A program made the position numbers and the translations under genes. The notes beneath the pieces are model-generated. The model searched no databases. It was not told the origin of the DNA and worked only from the letters and a program-made list of their open reading frames with translations. Below, piece by piece: positions 2,397 to 54,932 of a stretch of DNA of 64,000 nucleotides; positions within the stretch are counted from its first letter, which is position 1; every line of letters starts with the position of its first letter. Source of the DNA: Thermoanaerobaculia bacterium (GTDB taxonomy: Bacteria > Acidobacteriota > Thermoanaerobaculia > UBA5066); the NCBI GenBank assembly GCA_035542215.1, contig DATKLW010000082.1, positions 1,733 to 65,732 of the forward strand, read 5' to 3'.

Positions 2397-2449
2397 GCGT
2401 TGACGCGGGGCAGCCCATGCCGTAAGACTCGGGGTGGAGGACTCGGATC

Positions 2450-2863
2450 CTGTCGACTCCGGAGAAAGACAAGGACAACAAGCGGCACGCGCCGCGGTTG
2501 CCGCTCGCGAAAGGCACGAGGGCCCAGATCAAATCGACGCTGCCCGTCGAGCTCGTGAATCTCTCCGCGACGGGCGTCCTGATGGAGCTGCCGTCGGCGC
2601 TTCGCCCAGGCTCGACGTGCGACCTCACGGCGACGCTCGCGGGGATCCCCTTCATCGCGCTCGTGCGCGTGACGCGCTGCCGCGCGGGCGGCTTCGCCGC
2701 GGACGACAAGGGCGCCCGCGTCCTCGTCTACCAGGCCGGGGGCGAATTCGTGGCCCTCGCGGCGGAGCAGAAGCTGAACCTCTCGCGCGCGATCGAGAAG
2801 ATCGGCGGCGCGAAGCTCGCGAGCCAGTCCTCGGCGTTCCTGAAGGCCGTCAAGCCCGCCTAG
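2450..2863 (+). CDS. PilZ-domain protein (predicted c-di-GMP receptor); the start is probably non-canonical
   Basis: Contains N-L-S-A-T-G (D/NxSxxG). An R-H-A-P-R (RxxxR) motif is encoded at 2483-2497, just upstream of the TTG at 2498 that the ORF track uses. The frame is open back to the TAA at 2423-2425. A GGAGGA Shine-Dalgarno at 2436-2441 precedes ATC 2447 and CTG 2450. Confidence 0.7.
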   Translation: MSTPEKDKDNKRHAPRLPLAKGTRAQIKSTLPVELVNLSATGVLMELPSALRPGSTCDLTATLAGIPFIALVRVTRCRAGGFAADDKGARVLVYQAGGEFVALAAEQKLNLSRAIEKIGGAKLASQSSAFLKAVKPA

Positions 2864-4482
2864 GACGTCAGGTCGCGCAGCGCGGCGCGCAGGACGTCTT
2901 CCATCCGGCGCGCGCGGTCGAGGGCGGACGCCGCGGCGGCGCGGGACTCCTCCGCGGCGGCCTGGGCCGCCTGGAGCCTCTCGGTCAGCGCCGAAACCTG
3001 CGCCGCGAGGGAAATCGCGGCTTCGCTCGCCGCGGCCTCGGCGCTCTCCCGCGCTGCGCGCTCTGCGGCAATGGCCCCGGCGAGTCCGCTCCTCTGATCT
3101 GCGGTTTCCGTCTTCAGGGCCGCGATCGCCGCGAGCGCCTCGTCCGCACGGGCAGCGGCCGCGGCGTTGGCGGTCCTCAGTTCCTCGAGCGTTTCCCCGA
3201 TTTTCAGGGCAGCGGAGTCGTGCGCTTCCTTCTCGGCGTCGAGCCTCTTCTCGAGGCTCGCCGTGAGCTGGCGGCGCTCTTCTCGCTCGGCTTCGAGGGC
3301 CCTCTCGATCGCTTTTTCGAGCGCCTCGACGCGGCGGGCCTCGGCCTTCGCGGCGTCGAGCGCCGCGTCGTCCCGCTTGAACGTGCCGGACCCCCGCCCG
3401 GCCGCGGCGCGCCGGGCTTCGGCGAGGACCGCGTTGAGCTTGTCGTCGAGAGGCGTCACGGGCGCCGTCGTCTCGGGGCGCGCGCTGCGTGGCCGCTCGC
3501 CCGACGTCGAAGACGCCATGAGGTCGGGAAGCGCGTCGGCTCTCGCGGCCGAAGCGGGCGGGACGGACGCCGCCGCGTCAGGCTGGGCCGCAGGCGAGGC
3601 ATTCCTCAGCGAGTCGTCGGACAGGTCGGCGAACGTCCCCTCGGCCGAGGGCGGGACCCATTCGGCAGGCTCCTCCTCGGACGCGGACCCGGCTCCCGCG
3701 CCGGCGATCGCGAGGACCGGCGCGGACGACGGAGATTCGTCGGGCTCCGGGGCCGGGGCCGAGATCGTGACCGCGGGCCCGGGCGCCCTGAACGGCTGCG
3801 TCGAGGCGCCGGGGCCGGAAGACGACCCGAGTGACGCCGAGCCGAGCGAGGTCTCGGCCGCCGGCAGGTCCGATTCGACCGGCGGCTTCCAGCCGCGCTG
3901 GAGGCGCCGGAGGAGGTCGACGAACGTGAGCTTGGACGCGAGTTTGAAGGTCTCGAGAACGCCCATTCCCTCGGAGGCGACCGCCTCGACGTACGGGTAC
4001 GACTGGAAGCCGAGCGACTCCTGGAGCGCCTCCACGGAAAGCGCGCTCGGAAGGTCGCGCTTGTTGTACTGGATGACGACGGGCAGGGACTCGAGGGGGA
4101 TCTTCTCGTCGCCGAGGTTCTCGCGCAGGTTCTGGAAGCTCTCGAGGTTGTGCGAGAGCATCGACCACTGCGAGTCCACGACGAAGACGAGGCCGTCCAC
4201 GCCGCGCAGGACGATGCGGCGCGTCTCGTTGTAGAAGACCTGTCCGGGAACGGTGCACACCTGGAAGCGGACCGTGTATCCCTTGATGTTCCCGAGCTCG
4301 ATCGGCAGCAAATCGAAATAAATCGTCCTGTCTTGCGCCGTCGAAAGCGACAGGAGCTTGCCGGCGCCGCGCTCGAGGCGCTGGTGGAGGATCTTGAGGT
4401 TGGTCGTTTTGCCGCAGAGCCCGGGCCCGTAGAAGACGATCTTGGCCGTCAACTCCTTCGTGGCGTGGTTGAAGAGCGCCAT
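2860..4482 (-). CDS. MglA-like Ras-superfamily GTPase with a ~345-aa C-terminal low-complexity and coiled-coil extension
   Basis: Start re-set to the ATG at 4482, with GGAGG 7 nt upstream. The N-terminus MALFNHATKELTAKIVFYGPGLCGKTTNL, TVPGQ (in place of DxxGQ) and NKRD closely match M. xanthus MglA as I recall it. After about residue 195 comes a Ser/Pro/Ala-rich linker, then an Ala/Glu/Arg-rich heptad-like region. The 182 codons upstream in the track ORF were rejected. Confidence 0.85.
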   Translation of the reverse strand: MALFNHATKELTAKIVFYGPGLCGKTTNLKILHQRLERGAGKLLSLSTAQDRTIYFDLLPIELGNIKGYTVRFQVCTVPGQVFYNETRRIVLRGVDGLVFVVDSQWSMLSHNLESFQNLRENLGDEKIPLESLPVVIQYNKRDLPSALSVEALQESLGFQSYPYVEAVASEGMGVLETFKLASKLTFVDLLRRLQRGWKPPVESDLPAAETSLGSASLGSSSGPGASTQPFRAPGPAVTISAPAPEPDESPSSAPVLAIAGAGAGSASEEEPAEWVPPSAEGTFADLSDDSLRNASPAAQPDAAASVPPASAARADALPDLMASSTSGERPRSARPETTAPVTPLDDKLNAVLAEARRAAAGRGSGTFKRDDAALDAAKAEARRVEALEKAIERALEAEREERRQLTASLEKRLDAEKEAHDSAALKIGETLEELRTANAAAAARADEALAAIAALKTETADQRSGLAGAIAAERAARESAEAAASEAAISLAAQVSALTERLQAAQAAAEESRAAAASALDRARRMEDVLRAALRDLTS

Positions 4483-4541
4483 GGTGCCTCCGGGACTCTT
4501 TGAGACGCCGTCCGAGTATACGCGCCGCGTATCCTCCGGGC

Positions 4542-5399
4542 ATGACGGTCGAGGCGCGCGCGCGGCGAATCGAGGGCGTCTACGCGGGCCTTTCGCTGCG
4601 GGGCGTGTCCGTGGCCGGGCGCGAGACGTGGTTCCACTTCCCGACGCTCGGGTTCGCGTTCGACCTCGGCCGGTCCCCGTGGGAGCTCGTCTCCGTCCCC
4701 CACGTCTTCCTCTCGCACGCCCACCTCGACCACGGCGCCGGTCTCGCCTACTGGTTCTCGCAGCGCCGGCTCCTGCGCCTTCCGGGAGGGACCGTCCACA
4801 CGCACCCGGCCGCCGTCGAAGCGTGGCGGAAGATCGTCGAGCTGCACGCGGCGCTCGAGGACGTGCGTTACGACGCGCGCGTCGAGCCGATGGCGCCTCG
4901 CTCGCGCGTCGCTCTGCGCCGCGACCTGTCGATGACGTGCTTCCCGGCCGACCATCGTGTCCCGACGCTCGCGTTCGTGGCCTCCGAGGAGCGCCACCGC
5001 CTCCTCCCCGAATACGAGGCGCGGACACGCGAGGAGATCAAAGCCCTCGCGGCGAGTGGGAAGAGCGTCGCCGGGCGCGTCTCGATTCCCCTCGTCGGAT
5101 ACTCCGGCGACACGGCGGGCGGGATCTTCGATACGGCGCCGCCGGATTTCTTCCGGGCGAAGGTGCTCCTCATCGAGTGCTCGTTCGTGGAGGAGCGCGA
5201 CAAGGGCCGCGCGGCGCCGTTCAAGCACCTCCACGTCGACGACATCGCCGAGCGCGCGGACCTGTTCGAGAACGAGGTCGTCCTCCTGACGCACGTGACG
5301 CTCCGGACGCCGCCCGACTCGATCCGCCGCCTCGTGAAACAGCGCCTCCCCGCGCGCCTCGCGGACCGGGCGCGGCCGTTCCTGCCGGATCAGGCCTGA
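4542..5399 (+). CDS. Metallo-beta-lactamase-fold hydrolase (RNase Z-like)
   Basis: Carries the H-A-H-L-D-H motif (HxHxDH) and later conserved His/Asp positions. Start chosen at ATG 4542; TTG 4500 remains possible. Confidence 0.75.
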   Translation: MTVEARARRIEGVYAGLSLRGVSVAGRETWFHFPTLGFAFDLGRSPWELVSVPHVFLSHAHLDHGAGLAYWFSQRRLLRLPGGTVHTHPAAVEAWRKIVELHAALEDVRYDARVEPMAPRSRVALRRDLSMTCFPADHRVPTLAFVASEERHRLLPEYEARTREEIKALAASGKSVAGRVSIPLVGYSGDTAGGIFDTAPPDFFRAKVLLIECSFVEERDKGRAAPFKHLHVDDIAERADLFENEVVLLTHVTLRTPPDSIRRLVKQRLPARLADRARPFLPDQA

Positions 5400-5899
5400 G
5401 GCGCGGGCGTGCCCGCGATGCGGCCGCGGCCCGCGGCCCATTCGCCGAGCGCCTGCCGCCACTCCCACGCGTGGCCGGGGGAGACGACGAACTCGACGAC
5501 CTCGCCCGACGTCGCGGTCACGCGGAGGACCTTGCTGCGGAAGAACCCTCTCTGCGCCTGTGTCCGGTCATCTGTTTCGAGTCGTTGTATTTCTTCGAAG
5601 GTGAATGTGCCCGGATCAGAGGAGAGCGCCTGCCACGCGAGACCCGACGGGGTCAGAGCGACGGTGCCGGGGATCAGCGCGCGTCCGCGCGTTGCGGGGG
5701 GCGCGCCGCGGGGGGCGCGGCGCGCCCCCACCCCCGCACGGGACGACACGACGAGGCACGGCGTTCCGATGCGAACCACGCCCCCTAACCCTTCTAGGAA
5801 AATGCGTCCTCTCCGCCTGGCAACGAGTCTCGTCGTGAGGACGAAGCCTCCGGTCGCGAGCAAAAAGAACCCGACTGCGCCCGCAATCCAGAGAGCCAT
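5390..5899 (-). CDS. Small membrane-anchored hypothetical protein with a PH/GRAM-like soluble domain
   Basis: The ATG at 5899 overlaps the TAA of the vWA gene by 1 nt. It has an N-terminal TM helix (MALWIAGAVGFFLLATGGFVL) followed by a ~110-aa beta-rich domain. No family was recognised with certainty. Confidence 0.55.
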   Translation of the reverse strand: MALWIAGAVGFFLLATGGFVLTTRLVARRRGRIFLEGLGGVVRIGTPCLVVSSRAGVGARRAPRGAPPATRGRALIPGTVALTPSGLAWQALSSDPGTFTFEEIQRLETDDRTQAQRGFFRSKVLRVTATSGEVVEFVVSPGHAWEWRQALGEWAAGRGRIAGTPAPQA

Positions 5900-16505: not shown

Positions 16506-17948
16506 TCAGCGCGGCGTTCCGCCTTCGAACCCGCCCCCGAGAGCCTTCACGAGGTTGACGCTCGCCACCATGCGGCGCGTGCGGAGGTCGACGGCCGTCC
16601 GCTCGTTCGAAAGGGCCACCGTCTGCGCCGTCACGACCTCGAGGTAAGTCGTGATGCCGCCCTGGTAGCGGTTCTCCGCGAGCTGAACGAGTCTCCCGGA
16701 GGCCGCGACGGCGGCCGCCTGTTGCCTCTCCTCGAGGGCGAGCAGCCGCAGGGCGGCGAGCTGGTCCTCGACCTCCTGGAAGGCCGTGAGGGCGGTCTCG
16801 CGGTAGGCGCCGACGGCGGCGTCGTACTCGGCGCGGCGCTGCTCGGTCACGCCGCGGCGGCGGCCGCCGTCGAAGAGCGTGCCGAGCGCCGCGGGGCCGA
16901 GGGACCAGATGAAGGCCGGGGCGGTGAAGAGCTTCGACAGCGTCGTGCTCACGAAACCCGCGGAGGCGTCGAGGGAGATCGTCGGGTAGTACGCGGCGAC
17001 CGCGACGCCGATGAGCGCGCTCGCGGCGGCCGCGCGGCGCTCGGCGGCGGCCACGTCGGGCCGGCGCTCGAGGAGCTCGGACGGCAGGAGGCCCGGGATC
17101 GCGGGCGGCGCGACGGAGATCTCCGCGGCCGGGATCGTGAGGTCGGCCGGCGCCTTGCCGACGAGGAAGGCGATCGCGTGCTCGGTCTGGGCGCGCGAGA
17201 TCGCCACGTCGATCGCCTGCGCGCGCGTCGTCTCGAGGAGCGTCTCGGCCTGCGCCACGTCCACGCCCGAGACGACACCCTGGTCGTGGCGGTTGACCGT
17301 GAGCTTGAGGGCTTCCGCCTGCGCGGCGACGTTCGTGGAGAGCAGGGCGATCTCCGCGTCGAAGCCGTGAAGCTGGAACCAGCTGGCCGCGAGCTCGGCT
17401 TCCATGGAGAGCTTCACGCTCTCGAGGTCGTTCTGCGCCGCGGCGACGCCCGCGCTGCTGGACTCCACGTTTCGTCGCACGCGGCCCCACACGTCCAGCT
17501 CCCACGACGCGTCGCCGGCGGCGGAGTACGTCGTCGCCGTCACGGGCACGGGGCCCGGCGCTCCGGCCTGGTTCGTGAGAACGCGCGCGCGCGTCGCGGC
17601 GGCGCTGGCCGACACGGTTGGCGTGAAGTCGGCGCGCGTCTGCCTCAGGATGGCGCGCGCGGCGCGGTACCGCGCCTCGGCCTGCGCGATGGTCGTGTTG
17701 GAGGTCGCGAGCTCGTCTTCGAGCAGATCGAGATCCGGGTCGCCGAAGATCTTCCACCAGGCGCCGCGCGGCAGGGCGTCGGCCGGGCGGGCGACCCTCC
17801 ATTCCGAGGCGTCGACCGGCGCCTCCTTGAAGGAGGAGGGCGCGACGGTCGCGGGCTTCACGTAGTCCGGCCCCACCGCGCAGCCCGACACGGCAAGGGC
17901 GAGGGCAAGGGCGAGGGCGCCGCGGAGCGAGTCAGATCGCTGGTTCAT
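16506..17948 (-). CDS. Outer-membrane efflux lipoprotein, NodT/OprM family
   Basis: Lipobox LAVSGC, the two OEP repeats, and a position at the end of an RND operon. It overlaps the 3' end of the preceding RND gene by 17 nt. Confidence 0.9.
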   Translation of the reverse strand: MNQRSDSLRGALALALALAVSGCAVGPDYVKPATVAPSSFKEAPVDASEWRVARPADALPRGAWWKIFGDPDLDLLEDELATSNTTIAQAEARYRAARAILRQTRADFTPTVSASAAATRARVLTNQAGAPGPVPVTATTYSAAGDASWELDVWGRVRRNVESSSAGVAAAQNDLESVKLSMEAELAASWFQLHGFDAEIALLSTNVAAQAEALKLTVNRHDQGVVSGVDVAQAETLLETTRAQAIDVAISRAQTEHAIAFLVGKAPADLTIPAAEISVAPPAIPGLLPSELLERRPDVAAAERRAAAASALIGVAVAAYYPTISLDASAGFVSTTLSKLFTAPAFIWSLGPAALGTLFDGGRRRGVTEQRRAEYDAAVGAYRETALTAFQEVEDQLAALRLLALEERQQAAAVAASGRLVQLAENRYQGGITTYLEVVTAQTVALSNERTAVDLRTRRMVASVNLVKALGGGFEGGTPR

Positions 17949-20900
17949 GCGAGAGGTCCGCTTTCCTGGTGCGCCCGCGGCGCCGGGACTCCCAGCGCAG
18001 CCTCAGGCGGTCGAGGTAGAGGTAGATGACGGGCGTCGTGAAGAGCGTGAGCATCTGGCTGAAGACGAGTCCGCCCACGATCGCGATGCCGAGCGGGCGG
18101 CGGAGCTCGGAGCCGACCCCGGACCCGAGTGCGAGCGGAAGGCCGCCGAGGAGCGCCGCCATCGTCGTCATCGTGATGGGGCGGAACCGGAGGATGCAGG
18201 CCTGGAAGATCGCGTCCTCGGGGCTCTTCTTGTCCTTGCGCTCGGCCTCGATCGCGAAGTCGATCATCAGGATCGCGTTCTTCTTGACGATGCCGATGAG
18301 AAGGATGATCCCGATGAGCGCGATCACGCTGAGATCCGTCCCCGTGAAGAGCAGGGCCACGAGAGCGCCCACGCCCGCGGACGGGAGCGTCGAGAGGATC
18401 GTGACGGGGTGGATGAGGCTTTCGTAGAGGACGCCGAGGACGATGTAGACGGTCAGGAGGGCCGCGAGAATGAGGATGGGCTCGTTCGCGAGCGATTCCT
18501 GGAAGGCCTTGGCCGTGCCCTGGTAACTCGGGCGGATCGCGGACGGGAGGCCGATCTCGCCCGTCGCCTTGTTGATCTCGTCCACGGCGTCCCCGAGGGC
18601 GACCCCCGGCGCGAGGTTGAACGACAGCGTCACGGCGGGGAACTGACCCTGGTGGTTGATCGCGAGCGGGGCCGTCGTGCGCTCGAAACGCGTGAAGGCG
18701 CTGAGCGGAACCTGCGTGCCGTCCCTCGCCTTGACCCAGATCGATCTCAGGCTCTCCGGGTCCTGCCAGTATTTCGGATCCACCTCCATGACGACGTGGT
18801 ACTGGTTGAGCGGCTGGTACATCGTGGAGACCTGGCGCTGGCCGAACGCGTCGTACAGGGCGTCGTCGATCTGCTGCGGCGTGATCCCGAGGCGCGACGC
18901 GGTGGCCCGGTCGATCGTGACGTCGGCCTGCAGGCCCTTCGTCTGCTGGTCGCTGTTGAGGTCGACGATTCCCTTGATGCTCTTGAGCTTCTCGAGGACC
19001 CTCGGAGCCCAGGTCTCGAGGTCCCGATGGTCGTCGGCCGAGAGCGTGTACTGGTACTGGGCGTTCGACGCGAAGCCGCCGATGCGGAGGTCCTGCACGG
19101 CCTGGAGGAACAGGCTGCCCCCGGCCACCGAGCCGAGCTTTCCCCTCAGGCGCCCGACGACCTGGTCGGCGCTGAGCTTCCTCTTGCGGAGGTCCTTCAG
19201 CGTGACGAACATGCGCCCGCCGTTCACCGTGCCCTGGCCGCCCGTGTAGGCCTGAACGTACTCGGTCGCGGGGTCCTTCATGACGACCTCGACGAACGCC
19301 GCGACGCGCCGCGACATCGCCTGAAAGGACGTGCTCTGGTCGCCGAGGATCGCGCCGGACAGGCGGCCGGTGTCCTGCTGGGGGAAGAACCCCTTCGGCA
19401 CCTTGACGAACAGGAGGACCGTCGCCGCCATCGTCGCGAGAGTGACCGCGAGCGTGAACGGCTGGTGGCGCAGGACCCAGCGCAAGGCGGTCTCGTAGAC
19501 GTCGAGGATCCACTTGAACGCCTTCTCGGACGCCGCGAACACGCGCCCGTGCTTCTCCTCGTTCTTTCCCTTGAGGAGCCAGGCGCACATCATCGGAGTC
19601 GTCGTGAGGGAGACGAGCATCGAGACGAAGATGGCGACCGAGAGCGTGACGGCGAACTCGCGGAAGAGGCGGCCCACGATGCCGCCCATCAGGAGGATCG
19701 GGATGAAAACGGCGATGAGGGACATGCTGATCGAGAAGACCGTGAAGCCGATCTCGCGGGCGCCCTCCAGAGCGGCCGCGAAGGGCGCCATGCCCGCCTC
19801 GACGTGACGCGTGATGTTCTCGATCACGACGATCGCGTCGTCCACGACGAAGCCGGTCGCGATCGTCATCGCCATGAGGGACAGGTTGTCGATGCTGTAG
19901 CCGAGGAGGTACATCGCGCCGAACGTCCCGACGAGAGAGACGGGCACGGCCACGCTCGGGATGATCGTCGAGCGCACGCTTCTCAGGAACGCGAAGACGA
20001 CGAGGATGACGAGCCCGATCGAGATCATGAGCGTGATCTGGACGTCCCTCACGGACGCACGGATCGTGCCGGTCCGGTCGAGCATGACGGACACCTTGAT
20101 CGTGGGCGGCACTTCGGCCTGGAGCTGCGGCATGAGGGCCGTGATGCGGTCGACCGTGTCGATGATGTTCGCGCCGGGCTGGCGAAACACGATGAGAAGG
20201 ACGGCCGGCTGGTTGTTCGCGATCCCGGTCGTCATGACGTTCTCGACGGAATCGGTCACGGTGGCGATGTCGGAGAGCCGGAGCGCCGCCCCGTTCCTGT
20301 AGGAGACGACGAGAGGCCGGTACTGGTCGGCCTTGAGGAGCTGATCGGTCGTCGCGATGGACCACAGGCGTCCGCCCATCCCGAGCTCGCCCTTCGGGCT
20401 GTTCGCGTTCGCGTTCGCGAGGAGGGTCCGCACGTCCTCGAGGCCGAGGCCCGTCCGGCTGAGGGCGGTCGGGTTCACGTCCACGCGCACGGCGGGGAGC
20501 GCGCCGCCGCCCGCGAACACCTGACCGACGCCCGGCACCTGAGCGAGCTTCTGCTGGAGGACCGACGACGCGAGGTCGTACATCTGGGAGCGCGGCGCGA
20601 TGTCGGACGTCAGGCCGATCAGCATGATCGGGGCGTCGGCGGGGTTCACCTTCCGGTAGCTCGGGTTGTTCGGGAGGTTCGTGGGTAGCTGGCCGCGGGC
20701 GGCGTTGATCGCGGCCTGGACGTCCCGCGCGGCGGCGTCGATGTTCCGCGAAAGGTCGAACTGGAGCACGATCGTCGTGGAGCCGAGGGAGCTCTGCGAC
20801 GTCATTTCGGTGATGCCCGCGATCCGCCCGAACTGCCTCTCGAGGGGCGTCGCGACGGACGACGCCATCGTGTCGGGGTTCGCGCCGGGCAGCGCCGCCG

Positions 20901-21042
20901 AGACCTGGATCGTGGGGAACTCCACCTGGGGAAGCGGCGCCACCGGGAGAAAGAAATAGGCGATGCCGCCGGCCAGCGCGAGCGCCACCGTGAGAAGGCT
21001 CGTCCCGATCGGCCTGCGGATGAACGGCGCGGAAAGGCTCAT
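17932..21042 (-). CDS. mdtC: RND multidrug efflux permease, MdtC-like
   Basis: 1036 aa. The N-terminus [49 protein letters not shown] is typical of MdtC/AcrB-family pumps. ATGA overlap with the upstream RND gene. Confidence 0.9.
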
Positions 21043-24000
21043 CGGCCCGCCGCCGGCGACGGCTCGGGCGCGCCCGCGCCCGCCGCCTCGTCCCTCCGCG
21101 GCCCGGTCTTCGCGAGCCGGGCGGCGAGCCGGTCGAAGTAGAGGTAGATGACCGGCGTCGTGTAGAGGGTGAGCATCTGGCTGAAGATGAGGCCGCCCAC
21201 GATCGCGATCCCGAGCGGCCGCCTGAGCTCGGCGCCCGTGCCGGTCCCGAGAGCGAGAGGCACTCCGGCCAGGAGCGCCGCCATCGTCGTCATGATGATG
21301 GGGCGGAACCTCTGCAGCGCGGCCTGGGTGATCGCGTCGAGAGGCGCCTTCTTGTCCTTGCGCTCGGCCTCGAGGGCGAAGTCGATCATCATGATCGCGT
21401 TCTTTTCCACGATCCCGATGAGAAGGACGATGCCGATGAGCGCGACGACCGTGAAGTCCAGCCGGCAGAGCATGAGCGAGAGCAGGGCTCCCACGCCCGC
21501 CGACGGGAGGGTCGAGAGGATCGTGACGGGGTGGATCGCGCTCTCATAGAGGACGCCGAGCAGGATGTAGACGGTCACGAGCGCGGCGAGGATGAGGATG
21601 GGGGTGTTCGTGAGCGAGGCGCCGAACGCCCGCGCCGTGCCCTCGAACTGGGCCTGGATGCTCCGGGGAAGCCCGAGCTCCGCCTGCGCCTTCTCGATGG
21701 CCTTCACGGCGGCCCCGAGGGAGGCGTCGGGCGCGAGGTTGAACGAGACCGTCGCCGCGGGGAACTGCCCCTGGTGGTTCACGGCGAGAGGGGCGTTGAC
21801 CGTCTCGACGGTGGCGAGCGCGCTCAGGGGGACCGAGCCTCCCGTGGACGAGCGCAGGTAGACGTTCTGGAGGTCCTCGGGCCTCACCTGCAGCTCGGGG
21901 CGGCCCTCGAGGACGACGCGGTATTGGTTGAGCTGCGTGAACATGGTCGAGACCTGGCGCTGGCCGAACGTGTCGTAGAGCGCGTCGTCGATCTGCTGCG
22001 GCGTGACGCCGAAGCGCGACGCCGAGTTCCGGTCGATCACGACCCGCGCCTGGACCCCCGAGGTCGAAAGGTCGCTCGCCACGTCGCGCAGCTGGGGGAG
22101 CGCTTTCAGCCTGTCGACGAAGCGCGGAACCCAGACGGCGAGCTCTGCGGCGTCGGAGTCCTCGAGGCTGTACTGGTACTGCGTCTTGCTGACCCGGTCC
22201 TCGACCGTGAGGTCCTGCACGGGCTGGAGGAAGAGCAGGATTCCCGGGACCTTGTTGAGCTCGGGCTGGAGCCGCCGGATCAGGTCGTCGGCGCCGATCT
22301 TCCGGTCTTCGAGGGGCTTGAGGTTGATCTGGATCCGCCCGCTGTTGGGCGTCATGTTGGTTCCGTCGACGCCGGTGAACGACGAGAGGCTCTCGACGGC
22401 CGGGTCCCTCAGGATGACGGCCGCGAGCTGTTGCTGCCGGGCGGCCATCGTCGAGAAGGAGACCGTCTGCGGCGCCTCGGAGATTCCGAGGATCACGCCC
22501 GTGTCCTGCACCGGAAAAAAGCCCTTCGGGATCACGACGTAGAGGAGGATCGTCGCCGCGAACGTGAGGATCGCAACGGCGAGCGTGGCGGGCTGGTGCC
22601 GGAGCACCCAGGCGAGCGTCCGCTCGTAGAAGTCGATGATGCGCTGGAAAACGCGCCCCGAGGACCGGTAGAACCGGCTCTGCTGGTCCTCGGGGACGTG
22701 ACGGAGGAGGCGCGCGCACATCATCGGCGTGAGCGTGAGCGAGACGGCCGCCGAGATGAGGATCGTGACCGAGAGCGTCACGGCGAACTCGCGGAACAGG
22801 CGTCCGACGATGTCGCCCATGAAGAGGAGCGGGATCAGGACCGCGATGAGGGACACGGTCAGCGACAGGATCGTGAAGCCGATCTGCTCGGAGCCCTTCA
22901 GGGCGGCCGCGAGCGGCTTTTCTCCCTGTTCGATGTAGCGCGAGATGTTCTCGATCATGACGATCGCGTCGTCCACGACGAACCCCGTCGAGATCGTGAG
23001 CGCCATGAGGGTGAGGTTGTTCAGGCTGTAGCCGAGGGCGTACATCGCGGCAAACGTCCCCATGAGGGAGAGCGGGACCGCGACGCTCGGGATGACCGTG
23101 GCCGGAATGCTCCTCAGGAAGATGAAGATGACCATGACGACGAGCGCGATCACGAGCATGAGCTCGAACTCGACGTCCGCGACGGACGCCCGGATCGTCG
23201 TCGTGCGGTCCGTGAGGATGCGGACGTCGATCGCGGCCGGCAGGCTGGCCTTGAGCTGCGGGAGGAGGGTCTTCACACGGTCGACGACCGCGATGATGTT
23301 CGCGCCGGGCTGGCGCTGGATGTTCAGGATGACGGCCGGCGTCTCGTTCATCCACGCGGCCTGCTTGACGTTCTCGGCGCTGTCGACGACGAGCGCGACG
23401 TCGGAGAGACGAACCGGTGCGCCCTTCCGGTAGGCGATCACGAGGGGCAGGTAGTCGGCGCTCGCGAGGAGCTGGTCGTTCGCGCCGATCGTGTAGGACT
23501 GGCTCTTGCCGTCGAAGCTCCCCTTGGCCTGGTTGACGTTCGCGTTCGCGAGCGCCGCGCGGACGTCCTCCATCGTGAGGCCATAGGACGAAAGCGCGGT
23601 CGGATTGACCTGGACGCGCACGGCAGGCTTCTGGCCGCCGCTGATCGAGACGAGGCCGATGCCGGGGAGCTGCGAGATCTTCTGCGCGAGCCGCGTGTCG
23701 GCGATGTCCTCCACCTGGGAGAGCGCCATCGTCTTCGAGGTGAGGGCCAGCGTGAGGATCGGCGCGTCGGCCGGATTCGTTTTGCTGTAGATCGGAGGGT
23801 TCGGGAGGTCCTTCGGGAGATAGGTTCCCGCCGCGTTGATCGCGGCCTGGACCTGCTGCTCGGCGACGTCGATGTTCAGTTCGAGCGTGAACTGGAGGGT
23901 GATGACCGACGCGCCCTGCGAGCTCGTCGAGGTCATCTGGTTGAGGCCCGGCACCTGGCCGAACTGCCTCTCGAGAGGCGCGGTGACCGAGGAGGCCATG

Positions 24001-24173
24001 ACGTCCGGGCTCGCGCCGGGATAGAACGTCAGCACCTGGATCGTCGGGTAGTCGACCTGCGGGAGCGCCGACACGGGGAGCTGATGGAAGCCGACGACGC
24101 CGATCAGCAGGAGTCCCGCCATCAGGAGGGACGTCGCGACCGGCCGCTCGATGAAGGGTCGGGAGGGGTTCAT
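21039..24173 (-). CDS. mdtB: RND multidrug efflux permease, MdtB-like
   Basis: Start re-set to the ATG at 24173 ([47 protein letters not shown]). The 395 upstream codons of the track ORF overlap the MFP gene out of frame and were rejected. Confidence 0.9.
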
Positions 24174-43651: not shown

Positions 43652-44470
43652 TCAGTCCGCGATCCGGCGTTTCGCGACGTGAATCGCGTCCACGGGCCGC
43701 TTCCACACGCTTCGGCGCGCCTCTCCGTCGAGCCACGATTCCGCAGGGGCCGGTCTCCCGAACCGGAACCCCTGCGCGAACGGGATCCCGAGTTCCGCGA
43801 TCGTGCGTTCGTCCTCCGGGGTCTCGACGCCCTCGGCGATGACGCGGGCGCCCAGTCGGCGGGAGAGGTCCTGCAGACCCAGGAGAATCCCGGCCATCCG
43901 GGGGTTCCGGTGGACGTTCTTCACGAAGGACCGGTCCACCTTGATCCACTCGGGCGCGAGGTGGAGGAGGTGGTGGAGCCAGGGGTAGCGTGCGCCGACG
44001 TCGTCGAGGGCGAGCCGGATCCCCCGCCGGCGAAACGGAACGAGGCTCTTCGCGATCGCCCGCGCGTGCTCCCCGTCCAGCGACTCGGAGATCTCGAGGA
44101 TCACGCCCGCGGGGTCCACCTCGAGAGCGTCCATGAGCGAAAAGAGCGCGTCCCCGTCGAGCGACATCGTCCCGGCCTGGATGTTGATGAAGAGCTGGGA
44201 ACCTCTCGGGAGCGCCCGGCCGGAGCGCAGCGCCGAGTCGACGCACGCGAGGTCGAGCTGTCTCAGCACCCCGTCCTCGAGGGCGTGGCCGCGCCCGAAG
44301 AGCGTCTCGGGCATCGACAGCGCCGTGCCGCGCGGCCCGCGGAGGAGCGCCTCGAATCCGAGCTTCCTGCCGCTCGAGAGCTCGACGATGGGCTGGAAAG
44401 CCATGGACAGGAATCCGCGCGCGAGGAGAGACGCCACCTCGTCGCCGGCAGGCGCCGGACGGGCCTTCAT
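43652..44470 (-). CDS. Stand-alone EAL-domain c-di-GMP phosphodiesterase (last gene of the che-like operon)
   Basis: The ATG at 44470 is in an ATGA overlap with the cheB stop. The motifs EALLR, QLFINI, EISES, DDVG, IKVDRSF, EGVET and QGFRFGRP are all present, so it looks catalytically competent. No REC, GGDEF or sensor domain. Confidence 0.88.
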   Translation of the reverse strand: MKARPAPAGDEVASLLARGFLSMAFQPIVELSSGRKLGFEALLRGPRGTALSMPETLFGRGHALEDGVLRQLDLACVDSALRSGRALPRGSQLFINIQAGTMSLDGDALFSLMDALEVDPAGVILEISESLDGEHARAIAKSLVPFRRRGIRLALDDVGARYPWLHHLLHLAPEWIKVDRSFVKNVHRNPRMAGILLGLQDLSRRLGARVIAEGVETPEDERTIAELGIPFAQGFRFGRPAPAESWLDGEARRSVWKRPVDAIHVAKRRIAD

Positions 44471-45552
44471 CGCACCGCACGCTCGGCGCGCGCGGCCCGG
44501 AGAATCGCTCCGGCGATGCGCGAGAGCGGTTGGACCTCGCAGACCGCGCCGCGCGCGATCGCGGCCCCCGGCATTCCGAAGACGACGCAGGACGCTTCGT
44601 CCTGCGCGATCGTGTGGGCGCCGGCGAGCTTCATCTCGAGAAGGCCGTCGGCGCCGTCGGTCCCCATGCCGGTCAGGATGGCGCCGACCGCGTTGACGCC
44701 GGCGGCCTGCGCCGTCGACCAGAACAGGACGTCGGCGCTCGGGCGGTGGCGGGACACGAGCGGACCGTTCGTCACTTCCACGGAGTAGCGGGTGCCCGTC
44801 CGCCGGAGCCGCGTGTGCCGGTTGCCCGGCGCGACGAGGGCGCGCCCTTCGCGGACCGGGTCGCCGTTCTCTGCTTCCTTCACCTCGATCGTGCAGACCT
44901 CGTTCAGGCGCCGGGCGAATGCGGCCGTGAAGACCTCGGGCATGTGCTGGACGATCACGAGTCCCGGGGCGTCCGGCGAAAGCTCCTTGAGGAGCTGGCC
45001 GAGGGCCTCGGTCCCACCCGTCGACGCGGCGACGACGACGACGCGATCCGTCGAGACCGTCGGCGGCGCGCCGTGCGCGGGAAACGCCACCTTCGCGCTG
45101 ACGCTCGGCTCGGGCGGGCGCGCCGCCGGGCCGCGCCGGCGCACGCGCGCCCGCGCCGCGGCCCGGACGGAGTCCGCGAGGAGGGTCGCCGATTCCTCGA
45201 GGAAGCCCTGGACGCCGAGGCGCGGCTTCGTGACGATCTCGATCGCGCCCTCCTCGAGCGCCCGCAGCGCCGCTTCCGTCCCGGGGCCGGTCAGCGCCGA
45301 GCACACGACGACGGGGATCGGGTCGGAGCTCATGACGCTGCGAAGGAACGTGAGCCCGTCCATCCGCGGCATCTCGAGGTCGAGGAGGATCACGTCGGGC
45401 CGCGCCTTCTTGATCCGCTCGAACGCGATGATCGGGTCGGCCGCGATGTCGACGACGTGTCCCTCGCGGGCGAGCATTCCGCCGAGGACCTCGCGCACGA
45501 GCGCCGAGTCGTCCACCACGAGAACGCGGAGGGGCGGGGGCGGCGCGCTCAA
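44467..45552 (-). CDS. cheB: Chemotaxis response regulator protein-glutamate methylesterase
   Basis: REC domain (RVLVVDDSALVRE...DLEMPRMDG) plus a methylesterase domain (AASTGGTEAL, VQHMP, LTGMGTDGA). The start is proposed at the TTG at 45552 (TTGA overlap with the cheR stop). Confidence 0.9.
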   Translation of the reverse strand: MSAPPPPLRVLVVDDSALVREVLGGMLAREGHVVDIAADPIIAFERIKKARPDVILLDLEMPRMDGLTFLRSVMSSDPIPVVVCSALTGPGTEAALRALEEGAIEIVTKPRLGVQGFLEESATLLADSVRAAARARVRRRGPAARPPEPSVSAKVAFPAHGAPPTVSTDRVVVVAASTGGTEALGQLLKELSPDAPGLVIVQHMPEVFTAAFARRLNEVCTIEVKEAENGDPVREGRALVAPGNRHTRLRRTGTRYSVEVTNGPLVSRHRPSADVLFWSTAQAAGVNAVGAILTGMGTDGADGLLEMKLAGAHTIAQDEASCVVFGMPGAAIARGAVCEVQPLSRIAGAILRAARAERAVR

Positions 45553-46430
45553 CGCCCGGCCCCGCTCCGGCTTCCGCGGGGGAGCGCTTCGCCGTTCGTG
45601 TACGCCGATGGCATCAGCGGGCGCACGCGGTCCGTGATCCCGTTCAGGGTCTCCGCGTGGCCGACGAAGAAGAAGCCGCCGGGCGCGAGCCGGTCGAGGA
45701 GCCGGGAGACGGCGCGCCGCTTGCCGTCGGCGTCGAAGTAGATCAGGACGTTCCGGCAGAGGATCGCGTCGAAGGGTCCGTCCGGCGGCCAGTTGTCGCC
45801 CGCGAGGTTGATGCGCTCGAACCGGACGAGCGCCCGGAGCTCGGGACCGGCCTTCATCTTCCCGTCCTCGGGACCGGTTCCGCGAAGCATGTAGGCCTTC
45901 AGGAGGTCCGGCGGGATCTCGCGGGACCGCTCGAGGGGCCAGACGCCCGCGCGCGCGCGGGCGAGCGCTTTGGTCGAGAGGTCCGTCGCCAGGATCTCGA
46001 GATCCCACGTCTTCGGTAAGTACGAGGCCAGGAGCATCGCCAGCGAGAACGGCTCCTCTCCCGTCGAGCAGCCGGCGCTCCAGATCCGCACCCGGTGCGG
46101 CCGTCTTCTTCGCGACCCTTCTTCGAGCCAGGCCGGGAGGACGCGCTCCTTCAGGAACTCGAACTGCCCGGGCTCCCGGAAGAACCGGGTCTCGTTCGTC
46201 GCGATCGCGTCGAGCATGAGGACCCGCTCGTCCGCGCTCGCCTCGACGCGACCCAGGTACTCCTCGAACGAGTCCAGCCCGAGCTCGCGCAGGCGGCGGC
46301 CCAGCCGCCCGACCAGAAGCGCCCTCTTGGTTTCGGAGAGGTTGATCCCCGATTCACGGAGGATCATGGCCTGGAATCCGCGGAAGACGCGGGGCGTCAC
46401 CTGTTCGAGGCCTGGCGACGTTCCCCGCAT
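45549..46430 (-). CDS. cheR: Chemotaxis protein methyltransferase
   Basis: The ATG at 46430 gives a CheR N-terminal helical domain, TRFFRE and the SAM-binding motif IWSAGCSTGEEP. Confidence 0.9.
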   Translation of the reverse strand: MRGTSPGLEQVTPRVFRGFQAMILRESGINLSETKRALLVGRLGRRLRELGLDSFEEYLGRVEASADERVLMLDAIATNETRFFREPGQFEFLKERVLPAWLEEGSRRRRPHRVRIWSAGCSTGEEPFSLAMLLASYLPKTWDLEILATDLSTKALARARAGVWPLERSREIPPDLLKAYMLRGTGPEDGKMKAGPELRALVRFERINLAGDNWPPDGPFDAILCRNVLIYFDADGKRRAVSRLLDRLAPGGFFFVGHAETLNGITDRVRPLMPSAYTNGEALPRGSRSGAGR

Positions 46431-46437
46431 CTTCGGC

Positions 46438-48111
46438 TCAGAAGCGCCTGAAGTGACGGTCCGACTCGGCCGCATGGGATCCGACAGCGCGCTTCGTGAC
46501 GACGACGGCGGGCTGCGAGACGACCGCCCGCGCCGGAAGGGTCCGCGCCGCGTGCGTCCCTGAGACGCTCCGCGGCTCCGGCCGGGCCTGCAGCTCCGGG
46601 GCGCCCGTGCGGAAGAACGCAAGGACCTGCTGGAGGCCCTCCGCCTGGGTCGCCATCTCTTCGGCGGTCGCGGCGAACTCTTCCGCCGCGGCCGCGTTGC
46701 GCTGCGTGACCTGGTCGACCTGGTTCATGGCGCGGTTGACCTGCGTGACGCCCGACGCCTGCTCCCGGGACGCGGCGGCGACCTCCTGGACGAGCTCGGT
46801 CGTCTTGCGGATCGCGGGAACGAGCGCGCCGAGGGACTGGCTCGCGCGCTCGGCGACCGTCACGCTCGACCCGCTCAGCGTGCTGATGTCCCGGGCGGCG
46901 GTCTGGCTGCGCTCGGCGAGCTTGCGCACCTCGGCCGCCACGACCGCGAAGCCGCGGCCGTGGTCGCCGGCGCGCGCCGCCTCGATCGCGGCGTTGAGGG
47001 CGAGGAGGTTCGTCTGGTAGGCGATGTCCTCGACGAACGAGATCTTCTCCGCGATCGACCTCATCGCTCCGAGCGTTTCGGAGACGGCCTTCTCGCTCGC
47101 TTCGCCCTCGCGCGCGCCCTGCACCGCCATCTCCTCCATGCGCCGGCTGTTCTCGGCGTTCTGCGTGATCGACGCGCTCATCTCCTGGAGCGAGGCGGAG
47201 GTCTCCTGGATCGAGGAGGCCTGTTCTCCGGCGCCGCTCGAGAGCTGCTCCGATCCGGATGCGAGCTGGCGGGACGCCGCGGCCGACTGGGTCGTCGAAC
47301 GCTGGACCTGGACGAGGACTCCCTCGAACGTCTCGAGCATCTCGTTCAGCGACGCCCCCATTTCTCCGATCTCGTCCCTGCCGTGCGAGGCGATGCGCGC
47401 GGAGAGGTCTCCGCCCGCCGCGCGCCGGGCTTGCGTCGTGACGTCGACGAGCGGGCCGACCACACGCGCGGCGAAGACGAAGCCCGAGGCGACGCCGATG
47501 GCGACGAGAGCGAGGATCACGAGGATCGTCAGGATCGTCGTGCGGCTCGATGTCGCCCGGATCCGCTCGGCGAACGCCTCGGCGTTCTTCTGCCGGACCC
47601 CGGCGAGCTTCCCGAGGATCGCCCGCGCCTTCTCGAACTTCCGCTCGCCCTCGCTCATGGACAGCTCGATCGCGTCCTTCCGGGCGTCCGCGGACTCCTC
47701 CCCGAGGAGCCGGACGGCCTCGAGGGAGGACTTCTCCCAGTCCCCGTAGAGCGCCTCGAATTCGGGCCGGAGGGCCTTCTCGTCGTCGCTCGAGGGAACT
47801 GTCTTGTACTTCTCCCATGCCGCCCTCGCCAGGGTGAGCCGCAACCCGTGCTCCTTGCGCGCCCGCGCGGCTTCGTCGGACGCCTGCCTGACGAGCATGA
47901 GGCTGCGCTCTTCGACGCGCGCACGCTCCATGTCCCGGTCGATCTCCGCGATCGACGCGAGGGCGGGAAGGTCCTCACGGGTCGCGACCTGGAACGCCGA
48001 GGCCGCCCAGCGGAAATTTCCGAGGTTCCAGACGCACGCACCGGCGCCGATGAGGCTCCCGAGGAAGAACGCGCCGATGAATTTCGAGCGCAGCCTGATG
48101 TTTCGGGTCAT
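46438..48111 (-). CDS. Methyl-accepting chemotaxis protein (four-helix-bundle-like periplasmic domain + HAMP + MA domain)
   Basis: Two TM helices, HAMP, and the invariant hairpin [42 protein letters not shown]. Confidence 0.92.
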
Positions 48112-48132
48112 GGGGTCTCCTTCGCGGACCTC

Positions 48133-48702
48133 TTACTTGCCGATTGCCTTCTCGAGCCGTGTCAGGTTGACGCCCACGACGAGGACGCCGATCGGCTTGC
48201 CGAACGAGAGCACCGGGGCCGAAATCTGGATGTCATACGTGTCCGTGTCCGAGTCGAGCTCGGGCGGGCCCTGCCAGGGCATCCCGGTCCTGAAGGGGAG
48301 GTCGAACCGGGGCTGGCCCGCGTAGAAATAGTTCTCGGTCTTCTCGGTCATGGCGATCTGGTCCCCCCGCGTCCCACAGACGAAGGCGCGAACGTAGATC
48401 CCGTTCGAGCTTTCGAGCCTTCGGGCGAGGACCTTCCCGGCGTCGTTGGTCATGTAGGTCCGGAGGAGGTCGTCGCTCCGTCGAACCGTCTTCCATTTCT
48501 CGTTGTCCATGCCGCTGAGGGGCCCCATCTGGTTCTTCCAGATGACGGTCTTCACGAGGAGCGGGTCGGCGGCCCAGGCCTTGATCTGGACGATGTGACG
48601 GTCGAGCTCCTTCTGGAGCGCCGCGGTCATCTCGAACGTTGCGAGCGCCCGCCACGCGAGGACGCTCGCGAGCACGACGGCGAGGGTTGCGAGTTTTCTC
48701 AT
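48133..48702 (-). CDS. Secreted stand-alone Cache/PDC-like sensor-domain protein (paralog 2, 189 aa)
   Basis: The ATG at 48702 gives the signal peptide MRKLATLAVVLASVLA. The motifs WAADPLLVK, GMDNEKWKTVRR, YVRAF, TEKTENYFYAGQPRFDLPF and GKPIGVLVVGVNL resemble periplasmic Cache/PDC modules of receptors. No TM helix or output domain. Confidence 0.6.
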   Translation of the reverse strand: MRKLATLAVVLASVLAWRALATFEMTAALQKELDRHIVQIKAWAADPLLVKTVIWKNQMGPLSGMDNEKWKTVRRSDDLLRTYMTNDAGKVLARRLESSNGIYVRAFVCGTRGDQIAMTEKTENYFYAGQPRFDLPFRTGMPWQGPPELDSDTDTYDIQISAPVLSFGKPIGVLVVGVNLTRLEKAIGK

Positions 48703-48722
48703 GCTTGTCTCCCTTGTCTGCC

Positions 48723-49295: not shown

Positions 49296-49324
49296 CTCGA
49301 TCTCCTTTTCCTTTCGCCCTTCTC

Positions 49325-49873: not shown

Positions 49874-49875
49874 GG

Positions 49876-51510: not shown

Positions 51511-51512
51511 GC

Positions 51513-54501: not shown

Positions 54502-54502
54502 C

Positions 54503-54874: not shown

Positions 54875-54932
54875 GGGGGTGGCCTCCTTGTCTCTCTGGT
54901 CTCTGGGGTTCTCGGTCGGGGTCATCACGCGC

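Follow-up and report, generated by a model that had tools for sequence, protein, structure and literature searches.

An MglA-type GTPase gene of Acidobacteriota extended by an acidic linker and a predicted coiled-coil rod

Can a bacterial polarity GTPase carry its own means of localisation? Among bacterial Ras-like polarity switches, MglA is understood best, and it relies on a network of separate proteins for its localisation. In the 64-kb stretch of Thermoanaerobaculia DNA analysed here (the window), an MglA-like gene, mglA-long, continues far beyond the GTPase domain. We asked whether this tail is real, whether the usual partner MglB is encoded nearby and what the tail may do.

The mglA-long gene and its conservation

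2860..4482, minus strand: mglA-long gene, 540 codons plus a TAG stop at 2860-2862 (from translation)
4487..4491, minus strand: GGAGG Shine-Dalgarno sequence, 4 nt before the mglA-long ATG (read from the sequence)
4515..4520, minus strand: conserved TATACT -10-like box, 32 nt upstream of the mglA-long ATG (from the upstream alignment)

The mglA-long ATG is located at 4482-4480 and the product is 540 amino acids (aa) in length. When upstream regions of mglA-long orthologs are aligned, a GAGG/GGGG block is kept at the Shine-Dalgarno position, and TATACT or TATAAT is present in nearly all of the 26 regions. A consensus scan identified no full sigma-70 site near mglA-long, and no promoter or terminator match above shuffle expectation between 2300 and 4700.

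The sequence-only reading had named two findings that would discredit the tail: an artificial read-through, in which a sequencing error deletes the true stop near codon 195, or an extension that no homolog shares. Neither was found. The identical 540-aa protein is encoded on three independent assemblies, and contigs of three further runs span 2700-4600, including the head-tail junction (approximately 3897), without indels. The extension is present in well over 100 homolog clusters. Codon-position GC is 0.73/0.57/0.89, with a GC3 typical of coding sequence, and dN/dS in the tail is 0.19-0.42 (below 0.45), compared to 0.01-0.07 in the head. Nothing was found in favour of a sequencing or assembly artefact, the probability of which we consider negligible. 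The tail is translated and under purifying selection.

More than 50 syntenic orthologs with the same module were identified in Thermoanaerobaculia and Holophagales MAGs. The architecture (linker, amphipathic helix, variable rod and conserved rod end) is common to two Acidobacteriota classes, and rod length across orthologs differs by 7-, 11- or 18-residue steps. Complete relatives in GTDB genomes are all at least 360 aa in length. They include a second, shorter lineage (lineage B, approximately 365 aa) with a related tail, including a short C-terminal helix related to the rod end, and with the motif NPFADSVPF. The lineage B gene is found near smr, nadA, a DAG-kinase-like gene and a PLP enzyme gene; MglB and motility genes were looked for in this neighbourhood and none were found. 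Rods of the shorter subfamily are approximately 80 residues long. Most hosts are uncultured Acidobacteriota of wetlands and soils, and we know of no motility or polarity phenotype for these lineages.

The GTPase head and its genomic neighbourhood

3898..4482, minus strand: Group-1 MglA GTPase domain, aa 1-195 (MglA matches in the PDB; 49% identity to M. xanthus MglA)

The description of the first 195 or so residues as an MglA look-alike is borne out. Among solved structures, M. xanthus and T. thermophilus MglA match best (E values 1.5e-60 and 3.9e-57, residues 1-191), followed by Arf/Arl proteins at 1e-5, as opposed to 1e-60 for MglA. Identity to M. xanthus MglA (MxMglA) is 49% over 191 residues. 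The head contains the G1 motif GPGLCGKTT and the G4 motif NKRD; G3 is T77-V-P-G-Q81 (TVPGQ, versus DxxGQ) and is invariant across the mglA-long family. R52-T53 align to R53-T54 of MxMglA, the intrinsic arginine finger beside the G2 threonine. Residues retained with respect to MxMglA are G21, K25, T26, R52, T53, Q81, N140-K-R-D143, L63, I66, K180 and K184. Judged by these residues and by the Group-1 criteria of Wuichet and Sogaard-Andersen (2014; PMC4316618), the head is a catalytically complete Group-1 MglA GTPase.

The positions that contact MglB in M. xanthus are also recognizable. These are the beta2 face (Y55/F56/L58) and the alpha5/beta2-beta3 pocket (L63, I66, K180 and K184), which receives the MglB C-terminal helix; both are identical to or conservatively replaced relative to MglA, and the pocket residues are invariant or near-invariant across the family. 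The head was modelled poorly by AF2 in both runs (full length and residues 1-372; pLDDT approximately 30-65), probably owing to limited diversity in the alignment, and the models are uninformative on head-tail docking. In a Foldseek search with the first model, the top 14 matches are all MglA, with poor TM-scores.

The claim that no MglB partner lies nearby holds for the neighbourhood, which is the scope of these searches. M. xanthus MglB (MxMglB) has a best phmmer E value of 2.5 against all six-frame open reading frames (ORFs) of the 64-kb window, and no Pfam Roadblock match was found in ten small window ORFs. The same is true of the 10 kb on either side of 84 related loci, where no Roadblock/MglB gene was identified. 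Conserved small neighbours were considered as hidden Roadblock candidates. One, a 169-aa protein encoded at 5390-5899, has a hydrophobic helix at its N-terminus, no Pfam match and no resemblance to MxMglB; ORFs of 154, 132 and 140 aa are likewise without Pfam matches, and none resembles MxMglB. When MxMglB was used as a protein query, the matches among the 120 listed were all myxobacterial, with at least 76% identity. In the published survey, mglB lies within four genes of mglA for 390 of 449 Group-1 members (PMC4316618). The lack of a nearby mglB does not exclude Group-1 membership, because orphans are known in the MglA family.

The genes flanking mglA-long are as follows.

2447..2863, plus strand: convergent PilZ-like gene, called from TTG 2498; probable start ATC 2447 or CTG 2450
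4542..5399, plus strand: divergent MBL-fold (RNase Z-like) gene (Pfam Lactamase_B_2, 1.3e-09)

The MBL-fold gene scores far below the cut-off of NCBIfam RNase Z models and is divergent from mglA-long in nearly all orthologous loci; the reported 59-bp gap between the two is correct if the MBL start is ATG 4542. On the other side, the stop codons of the convergent pair overlap in CTAG at 2860-2863 exactly as first read: the PilZ-like gene ends with TAG at 2861-2863, and the mglA-long stop is the TAG complementary to 2860-2862.

The sequence-only reading took the PilZ neighbour, together with a PATAN/EAL operon, as a hint of c-di-GMP-linked polarity control. The operon exists (PATAN/Che/EAL, 43652-57273, minus strand), but it is approximately 40 kb from mglA-long and nothing ties it to this gene. 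The PilZ-like neighbour is tail-to-tail with mglA-long, at a distance of 60 bp or less, in 38 of 43 orthologous loci, and its product has an NxSxxG motif (NLSATG) and, only when the start is moved to 2447/2450, an RxxxR motif (KRHAPR). If this protein bound the tail or head, GTPase localisation or activity could become responsive to c-di-GMP; unipolar MglA localisation in M. xanthus depends on the PilZ proteins PlpA and PixA (PMC8316039). However, the PilZ-like gene is absent in four loci, its Pfam PilZ (PF07238) score is 18.2-19.6 bits against a cut-off of 22.5, and it may simply travel with the conserved ybeY-corC-era block, of which it is the last gene. The two genes are convergent and therefore not co-transcribed, which also counts against such coupling. 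We consider it unlikely.

Linker, amphipathic helix and rod

3880..3915, minus strand: conserved junction LLRRLQRGWKPP, aa 190-201, extending helix alpha5; L191, R192, R193, Q195 and G197 invariant or near-invariant
3451..3897, minus strand: acidic Pro/Ala/Ser-rich linker, aa 196-344, predicted to be disordered (composition; pLDDT below 50 in both AF2 models)
3610..3672, minus strand: short conserved motif E-P-A-E-W-V-P-P-S-A-E-G-T-F-A-D-L-S-D-D-S, aa 271-291, the best-conserved linker island
3373..3450, minus strand: conserved amphipathic helix LDDKLNAVLAEARRAAAGRGSGTFKR, aa 345-370 (column conservation 70-90%)
2866..3351, minus strand: predicted coiled-coil rod, aa 378-539, approximately 24 nm if straight (single continuous helix in AF2, pLDDT above 90)
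2863..2925, minus strand: conserved C-terminal rod end LDRARRMEDVLRAALRDLTS, aa 520-540 (family consensus ERARRLEDALRxALRxL)

The tail had been described as a Ser/Pro/Ala-rich segment followed by a heptad-like Ala/Glu/Arg-rich coiled coil. Order and composition stand; the heptad-like repeat is refined to an 18-residue (7+11) repeat. The linker consists of 21% A, 16% P and 16% S, has a net charge of -11 and a dN/dS of 0.25-0.42, and carries two conserved short motifs. Residues 373-540 consist of 33% A, 14% E, 11% L and 11% R, with no proline and no aromatic residue. The trustworthy parts of the AF2 models are the rod and the helix at 345-360 only (pLDDT 65-73 at full length; helix 344-361 in the run with residues 1-372).

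The hydrophobic period of the rod is 3.55-3.6, corresponding to the 18-residue repeats. This periodicity is coherent over 170-235 residues, with a power 10-18 times random in 13 family members, and rod indels of 7, 14, 11, 18, 22 and 36 residues keep the register. Near-invariant residues at the family level in the C-terminal part of the rod are L499, R526, L531 and R532. Judged by an unbroken hydrophobic seam along a long helix, with a period of approximately 3.5-3.67, aa 378-539 is, as modelled, a coiled coil.

No homolog of the tail was found outside the family. A tail-only profile search of 1.84 billion representative proteins returned 17 proteins: the real matches are family members or fragments, and two are spurious coiled-coil matches. 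Pfam has no match on the window tail, and a PDB profile search with the tail gave nothing significant. The tail is therefore not a known stand-alone partner fused to MglA.

We infer that rod-based self-scaffolding or localisation is the most economical reading of this anatomy. In the form that we favour, at a probability of roughly one half, mglA-long is a self-tethered MglA switch with a rod that both dimerises and anchors. The rods would form a parallel homo-oligomer, most simply a dimer, and the conserved far rod end would attach it to a landmark or partner in the cell. Linkers of approximately 150 residues would then allow two GTPase heads to search tens of nanometres around the anchor. 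The head would cycle between GTP and GDP as canonical MglA does, via a GAP encoded elsewhere in the genome, and the linker motifs would recruit regulators or effectors. Localisation, which in M. xanthus comes from RomR/RomX, MglB and coiled-coil effectors, would thus be built into the GTPase itself. The Ala-rich rod core, with L/I/V/M at only 1-4 of 8 a/d positions, argues against assigning a definite oligomer state or orientation.

The same rod could instead assemble into filaments or a lattice, as bacterial coiled-coil-rich, intermediate-filament-like proteins do, yielding a scaffold decorated with GTPases in place of a discrete dimer. It is long and uninterrupted, with non-heptad 18-residue periodicity and variable length, and its weak PDB profile matches are only to lamin, the TRIM72 coiled coil, Lpp and M protein. 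These matches have E values of at least 0.088, however, the 80-residue rods noted above are short for filament formers, and the head/rod/tail organisation typical of intermediate-filament-like proteins is lacking, which together make self-assembly rather improbable. Less probable still, in our estimation, is that the rod acts as an apolipoprotein- or phasin-like 11/22-mer amphipathic helix placing the GTPase at the surface of a membrane or granule. In favour are the Ala-rich, amphipathic character of the rod, an indel of 22 residues, and a distant member (P0120) with a precomputed Pfam apolipoprotein match and a period of 3.67-3.7. Most members, however, peak at 3.55-3.6 rather than 3.67, the window tail has no such Pfam match, and a rod with a net charge of -7 and no aromatics is a poor fit to membrane binding.

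A different role has been considered for the linker. In MxMglB, the C-terminus (SPFAEISDDDIDNLF, confirmed against its protein sequence) binds the MglA pocket L64, I67, K181 and K185 through residues 147-157 (PMC6785124). FADLSDDS may mimic this acidic helix and dock in the alpha5/beta2-beta3 pocket of its own head, tuning exchange or competing with MglB, such that a separate MglB-type exchange function would not be needed. The motif at aa 271-291 resembles the MxMglB C-terminus (SPFAEISDDDIDN; score 44 versus a shuffle mean of 25; 0.06% of composition-matched shuffles score as high), the residues of the pocket are retained, and NPFADSVPF occurs in lineage B. However, significance is reached only within the Thermoanaerobaculia clade, and the Holophagales and other distant members fall short of it; acidic disordered linkers often contain acidic motifs; and Pro-rich residues follow the motif in many homologs, making a helix like MglB 147-157 unlikely. 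In both AF2 models, the motif has a pLDDT of 34-55 and no docking is predicted, although this point is weakened because the head itself is poorly modelled. We regard cis-regulation as doubtful. More doubtful again, in our view, is an extended version in which the family is an autonomous, single-polypeptide polarity module: the rod would provide the landmark or dimer, and the cis acidic motif and amphipathic helix would replace the roles of the MglB C-terminal helix and RomR acidic tail (exchange promotion and complex stabilisation), allowing an MglA cycle without MglB or RomR.

Comparison with known systems

From its sequence, mglA-long is a genuine, conserved Acidobacteriota gene whose product is an MglA switch with a flexible acidic linker and a coiled-coil rod as permanent parts. 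If the self-tethered reading is true, the spatial part of a polarity module can be built into the GTPase, class-wide. This would also provide a simpler system for studying tethering geometry and short linear motifs controlling a small GTPase.

The P-loop, the Arg finger by the G2 threonine, TVPGQ and NKRD are shared with MglA of M. xanthus and T. thermophilus (PDB 6H17, 5YMX and 3T12). Canonical MglA is 195-197 aa in length and usually encoded at most four genes from mglB (PMC4316618), in contrast to the 540 aa of mglA-long, with its linker and rod. The same survey included single-domain small GTPases of 150-240 aa and excluded longer sequences, and extended MglA forms are therefore missing from the current classification; at 540 aa, mglA-long lies outside this range.

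Bdellovibrio bacteriovorus MglA is an orphan Group-1 protein that works without an adjacent MglB (PMC4316618). The lack of an adjacent mglB is common to both, but the Bdellovibrio protein is single-domain and 197 aa in length. It also has a P-loop change impairing hydrolysis, whereas mglA-long keeps G21 of the P-loop.

Coiled-coil and proline-rich regions are found in other GTPase pathways. FrzS and AglZ are coiled-coil MglA effectors, and ARL13B is a eukaryotic Arf-like GTPase with a coiled-coil and Pro-rich tail. These pair a small-GTPase pathway with long coiled coils and Pro-rich linkers that serve in localisation or self-association, as they may in mglA-long; no sequence relationship was found, the tail profile finding only the mglA-long family.

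In M. xanthus, two short acidic elements that end flexible regions, the C-terminal helix of MglB and the acidic tail of RomR, act on the MglA alpha5 pocket (PMC6785124). The linker of mglA-long is likewise acidic, and its FADLSDDS motif is similar to SPFAEISDDD. Those elements act in trans, as parts of Roadblock or receiver-domain proteins, whereas the mglA-long motif is in cis, often without helix-compatible sequence after it, and its binding is putative.

SofG of M. xanthus is an MglA paralog with an Arg finger, given as 239 aa and not stimulated by MglB (PMC4316618). Compared by description only, SofG and mglA-long are both of the orphan type with an Arg finger. SofG is localised via a polymer scaffold, the bactofilin BacP (PMC4085708). 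In SofG the scaffold is thus a separate protein, whereas mglA-long carries a rod of its own within the 345-aa tail of the GTPase.

Gene boundaries and reading frame

The extended mglA gene (mglA-long) encodes an MglA-type GTPase head followed by a linker and a putative coiled-coil tail, and everything that the sequence-only reading had described for this gene was found at 2860-4482.

Features of mglA-long, its divergent promoter region and other window genes
2860-4482, minus: mglA-long, a single open frame of 540 codons
4482, minus: ATG start, with GGAGG ahead of it at 4487-4491
2860-2862, minus: TAG stop (complement)
4515-4520, minus: TATACT, 32 nt ahead of the mglA-long ATG
4530-4535, plus: TATCCT, ending 6 nt before the ATG (4542) of the divergent MBL-fold gene
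5390-5899, minus: conserved 169-aa protein with an N-terminal hydrophobic helix, syntenic with a VWA gene in Thermoanaerobaculia loci
17932-24173, minus: tandem pair of genes for AcrB-type RND transporters (1036 and 1044 aa)

As originally noted, the stop codon shares the palindrome CTAG with that of the convergent PilZ-like gene (TAG, 2861-2863, plus strand), and 59 bp separate mglA-long from the MBL gene. This region (4483-4541) is conserved in 26 orthologous loci. Because TATCCT lies only 6 nt from the MBL ATG and no Shine-Dalgarno sequence precedes that codon, the MBL mRNA may be leaderless. No Pfam match was obtained for the 169-aa protein. The window also contains an outer-membrane efflux protein family.

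The 540-aa protein is called identically on three independent assemblies (ENA, Logan and JGI), and three more wetland metagenome runs yielded contigs that span 2700-4600, with the head-tail junction near 3897 inside them, and show 0-2 substitutions and no insertions or deletions. The tail has a coding-type composition (GC of 0.73/0.57/0.89 at the codon positions), and comparison of the window protein with four orthologs gives dN/dS values of 0.01-0.07 for the head, 0.25-0.42 for the linker and 0.19-0.33 for the helical part of the tail: the tail is translated and under selection, less tightly than the head. An artificial read-through caused by sequencing error, the artefact that the sequence-only reading had considered, is excluded by the agreement of the assemblies, the indel-free junction and the selected tail.

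The GTPase head, with no MglB gene nearby

Residues 1-191 match the structures of Myxococcus xanthus MglA (E 1.5e-60; 49% identity over 191 residues) and Thermus thermophilus MglA (E 3.9e-57), with Arf-like proteins the next best at 55 orders of magnitude weaker. Pfam reports only a weak Arf match, and no NCBIfam family exceeds its cut-off. Wuichet and Sogaard-Andersen defined Group 1 of the MglA family through P-loop, arginine finger, TVPGQ and NKRD-type features (PMC4316618). The head retains the P-loop (G19, G21, K25, T26 and T27), R52-T53 (the intrinsic arginine finger adjoining the G2 threonine), T77-V-P-G-Q81 and N140-K-R-D143, which places it in Group 1 on sequence grounds and, with the structure matches, bears out its description as an MglA look-alike. 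With G21 kept, nothing points to a variant that has lost hydrolysis.

M. xanthus MglA contacts its Roadblock/LC7 GAP partner MglB through F56/F57/F59 on beta2, and an allosteric pocket formed by L64, I67, K181 and K185 receives the C-terminal helix of MglB (PMC6785124). The counterparts in the window protein are Y55/F56/L58 and L63, I66, K180 and K184, respectively. Nearly all catalytic and MglB-contact residues are invariant or almost so in the family alignment, so the head looks like an ordinary, catalytically competent MglA that cycles and is built to work with a Roadblock-type GAP.

No such partner is encoded nearby, as the sequence-only reading had observed. A phmmer search with M. xanthus MglB (query verified against PDB 6H5B), which recovers T. 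thermophilus MglB at E 3e-17, was run on every six-frame ORF of the window and of 84 loci carrying relatives (~1.4 Mb); the best E value in the window was 2.5, and nothing in the full set fell below 1. Of the ten small window ORFs scanned with Pfam, none had a Roadblock domain. Judged from these neighbourhoods, the gene is an orphan in the survey's sense across the family. A protein search aimed at Acidobacteriota MglB returned, among the matches listed, myxobacterial sequences only.

Tail anatomy and a proposed self-tethered switch

Elements of the mglA-long tail (residue numbers; all encoded on the minus strand)
190-201: junction LLRRLQRGWKPP, conserved, prolonging helix alpha5
196-344: linker, 21% Ala, 16% Pro and 16% Ser, net charge -11
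254-261: conserved linker island APVLAxAG
271-291: conserved linker island E-W-V-P-P-S-A-E-G-T-F-A-D-L-S-D-D-S
345-370: LDDKLNAVLAEARRAAAGRGSGTFKR, the best-conserved tail element, predicted helical (pLDDT 65-73)
378-539: rod, one unbroken helix by AF2 (pLDDT >90)
520-540: rod end, family consensus ERARRLEDALRxALRxL

The composition confirms the reported Ser/Pro/Ala-rich segment (196-344) and Ala/Glu/Arg-rich region (378-539) downstream of the head, and the linker has pLDDT <50 in both AF2 runs, as suits the disordered-plus-coiled-coil tail first proposed. Ala makes up 33% of the rod, Glu 14%, and Leu and Arg 11% each; proline and aromatic residues are absent. In 13 family members, the rod's large hydrophobic side chains repeat every 3.55-3.6 residues, in phase across 170-235 residues and at 10-18 times the spectral power expected at random; rod lengths vary from homolog to homolog in steps of 7, 11, 14, 18, 22, 32, 36 and 43 residues. 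The rod thus looks like a coiled coil with an Ala-rich core. Its earlier description as heptad-like was nearly right: the periodicity is that of a coiled coil, but the repeats appear to be mixed heptad/hendecad (18-residue).

A profile built from twelve tails and searched against 1.84 billion representative proteins gave 17 hits, the last two being chance coiled-coil matches and the real ones family members or fragments starting inside the GTPase head. Pfam gave no match to the tail, and a PDB profile search gave only coiled-coil matches, none significant. Capture of a known partner is thereby rejected, and the tail is a lineage-specific invention.

We propose, with a probability of roughly 0.5, that mglA-long is a self-tethered switch. 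The rod would homo-oligomerise, most simply as a parallel dimer, with its conserved far end binding a landmark or partner. Reach for the two heads would come from the long acidic linker. The heads would go through an MglA-like cycle, served by a GAP from another part of the genome, and conserved motifs in the linker would recruit regulators or effectors. The various readings are not all mutually exclusive. That the rod serves as a filament-forming scaffold seems quite unlikely, and that it is a surface-binding amphipathic repeat very unlikely.

The most interesting rival is regulation in cis by a linker motif resembling the MglB C-terminus. M. xanthus MglB ends in SPFAEISDDDIDNLF, and its residues 147-157 dock into the alpha5 pocket and stimulate exchange (PMC6785124). 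When the window motif PSAEGTFADLSDDSLRN is aligned to this end, 0.06% of shuffles of matched composition score as high; the head also retains the conserved pocket. However, the similarity fades in Holophagales members, the residues that follow are often Pro-rich, and AF2 gives no docking signal (although its heads are too poor to trust); we regard this reading as unlikely.

Distribution, neighbourhood and relation to known MglA proteins

A search of 5.8 billion protein clusters recovered extended relatives in at least 120 of them, and matches over the full length reached as low as 47% identity; where names are present, they point to Thermoanaerobaculia and Acidobacteriota MAGs. Sampling GTDB at one genome per species gave 250 loci that code for a relative, and all complete genes in this set are extended, with lengths of at least 360 aa; the refuting condition that no homolog conserves the extension is thus excluded. 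The best 80 of these 250 loci are nearly all labelled as Thermoanaerobaculia, Holophagales or unclassified Acidobacteriota. The sole exception, a 4.2-kb contig binned as Acidithiobacillales (L041, JBLMYG010000389.1), has the Acidobacteriota synteny MBL / mglA-long / PilZ-like / era and is probably mis-binned. In two loci from long-read assemblies (L004 and L019) the adjoining genes are broken into several frames, and in one 761-aa relative (P0027) the coiled coil continues into out-of-frame sequence; these are frameshift errors of those records and leave the window unaffected.

Two lineages are distinguished. Lineage A, containing the window gene, has heads that share 73% identity or more (74% for the window protein and a Holophagales member), tails of 220 to >500 residues and a fixed neighbourhood: VWA gene, 169-aa membrane protein, divergent MBL gene, mglA-long, convergent PilZ-like gene, then era, corC and ybeY. 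Lineage B (L057, L060-L084) has heads ~58% identical to that of the window, a length of ~365 aa and a shorter tail with its own motifs (NPFADSVPF, EEVSLEQLL and RPATFSGNVP) and a short C-terminal helix; it neighbours smr, nadA and other housekeeping genes, along with a DAG-kinase-like gene and a conserved 255-aa gene.

Features bearing on c-di-GMP
2498, plus: TTG start of the PilZ-like gene as called, without the RxxxR motif
2436-2441, plus: GGAGGA, 5 nt ahead of ATC 2447 and 8 nt ahead of CTG 2450
43652-57273, minus: PATAN-GAF-Che-EAL operon (receiver, PATAN [DUF4388/PatA_N], GAF protein, receiver, second weak GAF protein, CheD, CheA, MCP, CheW, two unknowns, MCP, CheR, CheB and a stand-alone EAL phosphodiesterase)

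The PilZ-like gene scores just below the Pfam PilZ cut-off. In the region 2426-2500, the in-frame codons upstream of the called start read ILSTPEKDKDNKRHAPR; translation there could start only at ATC 2447 or CTG 2450, the latter conserved in the closest relatives; homologs with canonical starts contain [KR]RxxPR. Translation probably begins at a non-canonical codon, the TTG call cutting off RxxxR, and the protein would then have both c-di-GMP signature motifs (with NLSATG). In five loci from Holophagales and Acidobacteriota MAGs (L032, L038, L039, L042 and L049), two tandem PilZ-like genes instead of one lie 3' of mglA-long.

PilZ-mediated c-di-GMP control of mglA-long is a reading we doubt. 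The PilZ proteins PlpA and PixA, needed for unipolar MglA in M. xanthus (PMC8316039), make it a fair lead, and the two genes lie tail-to-tail within 60 bp in 38 of the 43 lineage-A loci whose flanks are long enough, the 4-nt overlap of the stops being kept in the closest clade; the PilZ-like gene is missing from four lineage-A loci. Adjacency alone proves little, however, because this gene is convergent and part of the era block. Of the two elements behind the earlier hint at c-di-GMP-dependent polarity, the neighbour is conserved and the operon is a genuine large chemosensory operon, but the latter lies 40 kb away and no evidence connects it to mglA-long. Overall, the earlier interpretation is partly borne out.

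The reference survey of prokaryotic small GTPases left out all sequences >240 aa (PMC4316618), so the extended architecture is absent from its classification, and no description of it was found in the literature searched. mglA-long is a new architectural variant of Group 1 MglA, conserved in two Acidobacteriota classes and missed by earlier surveys.
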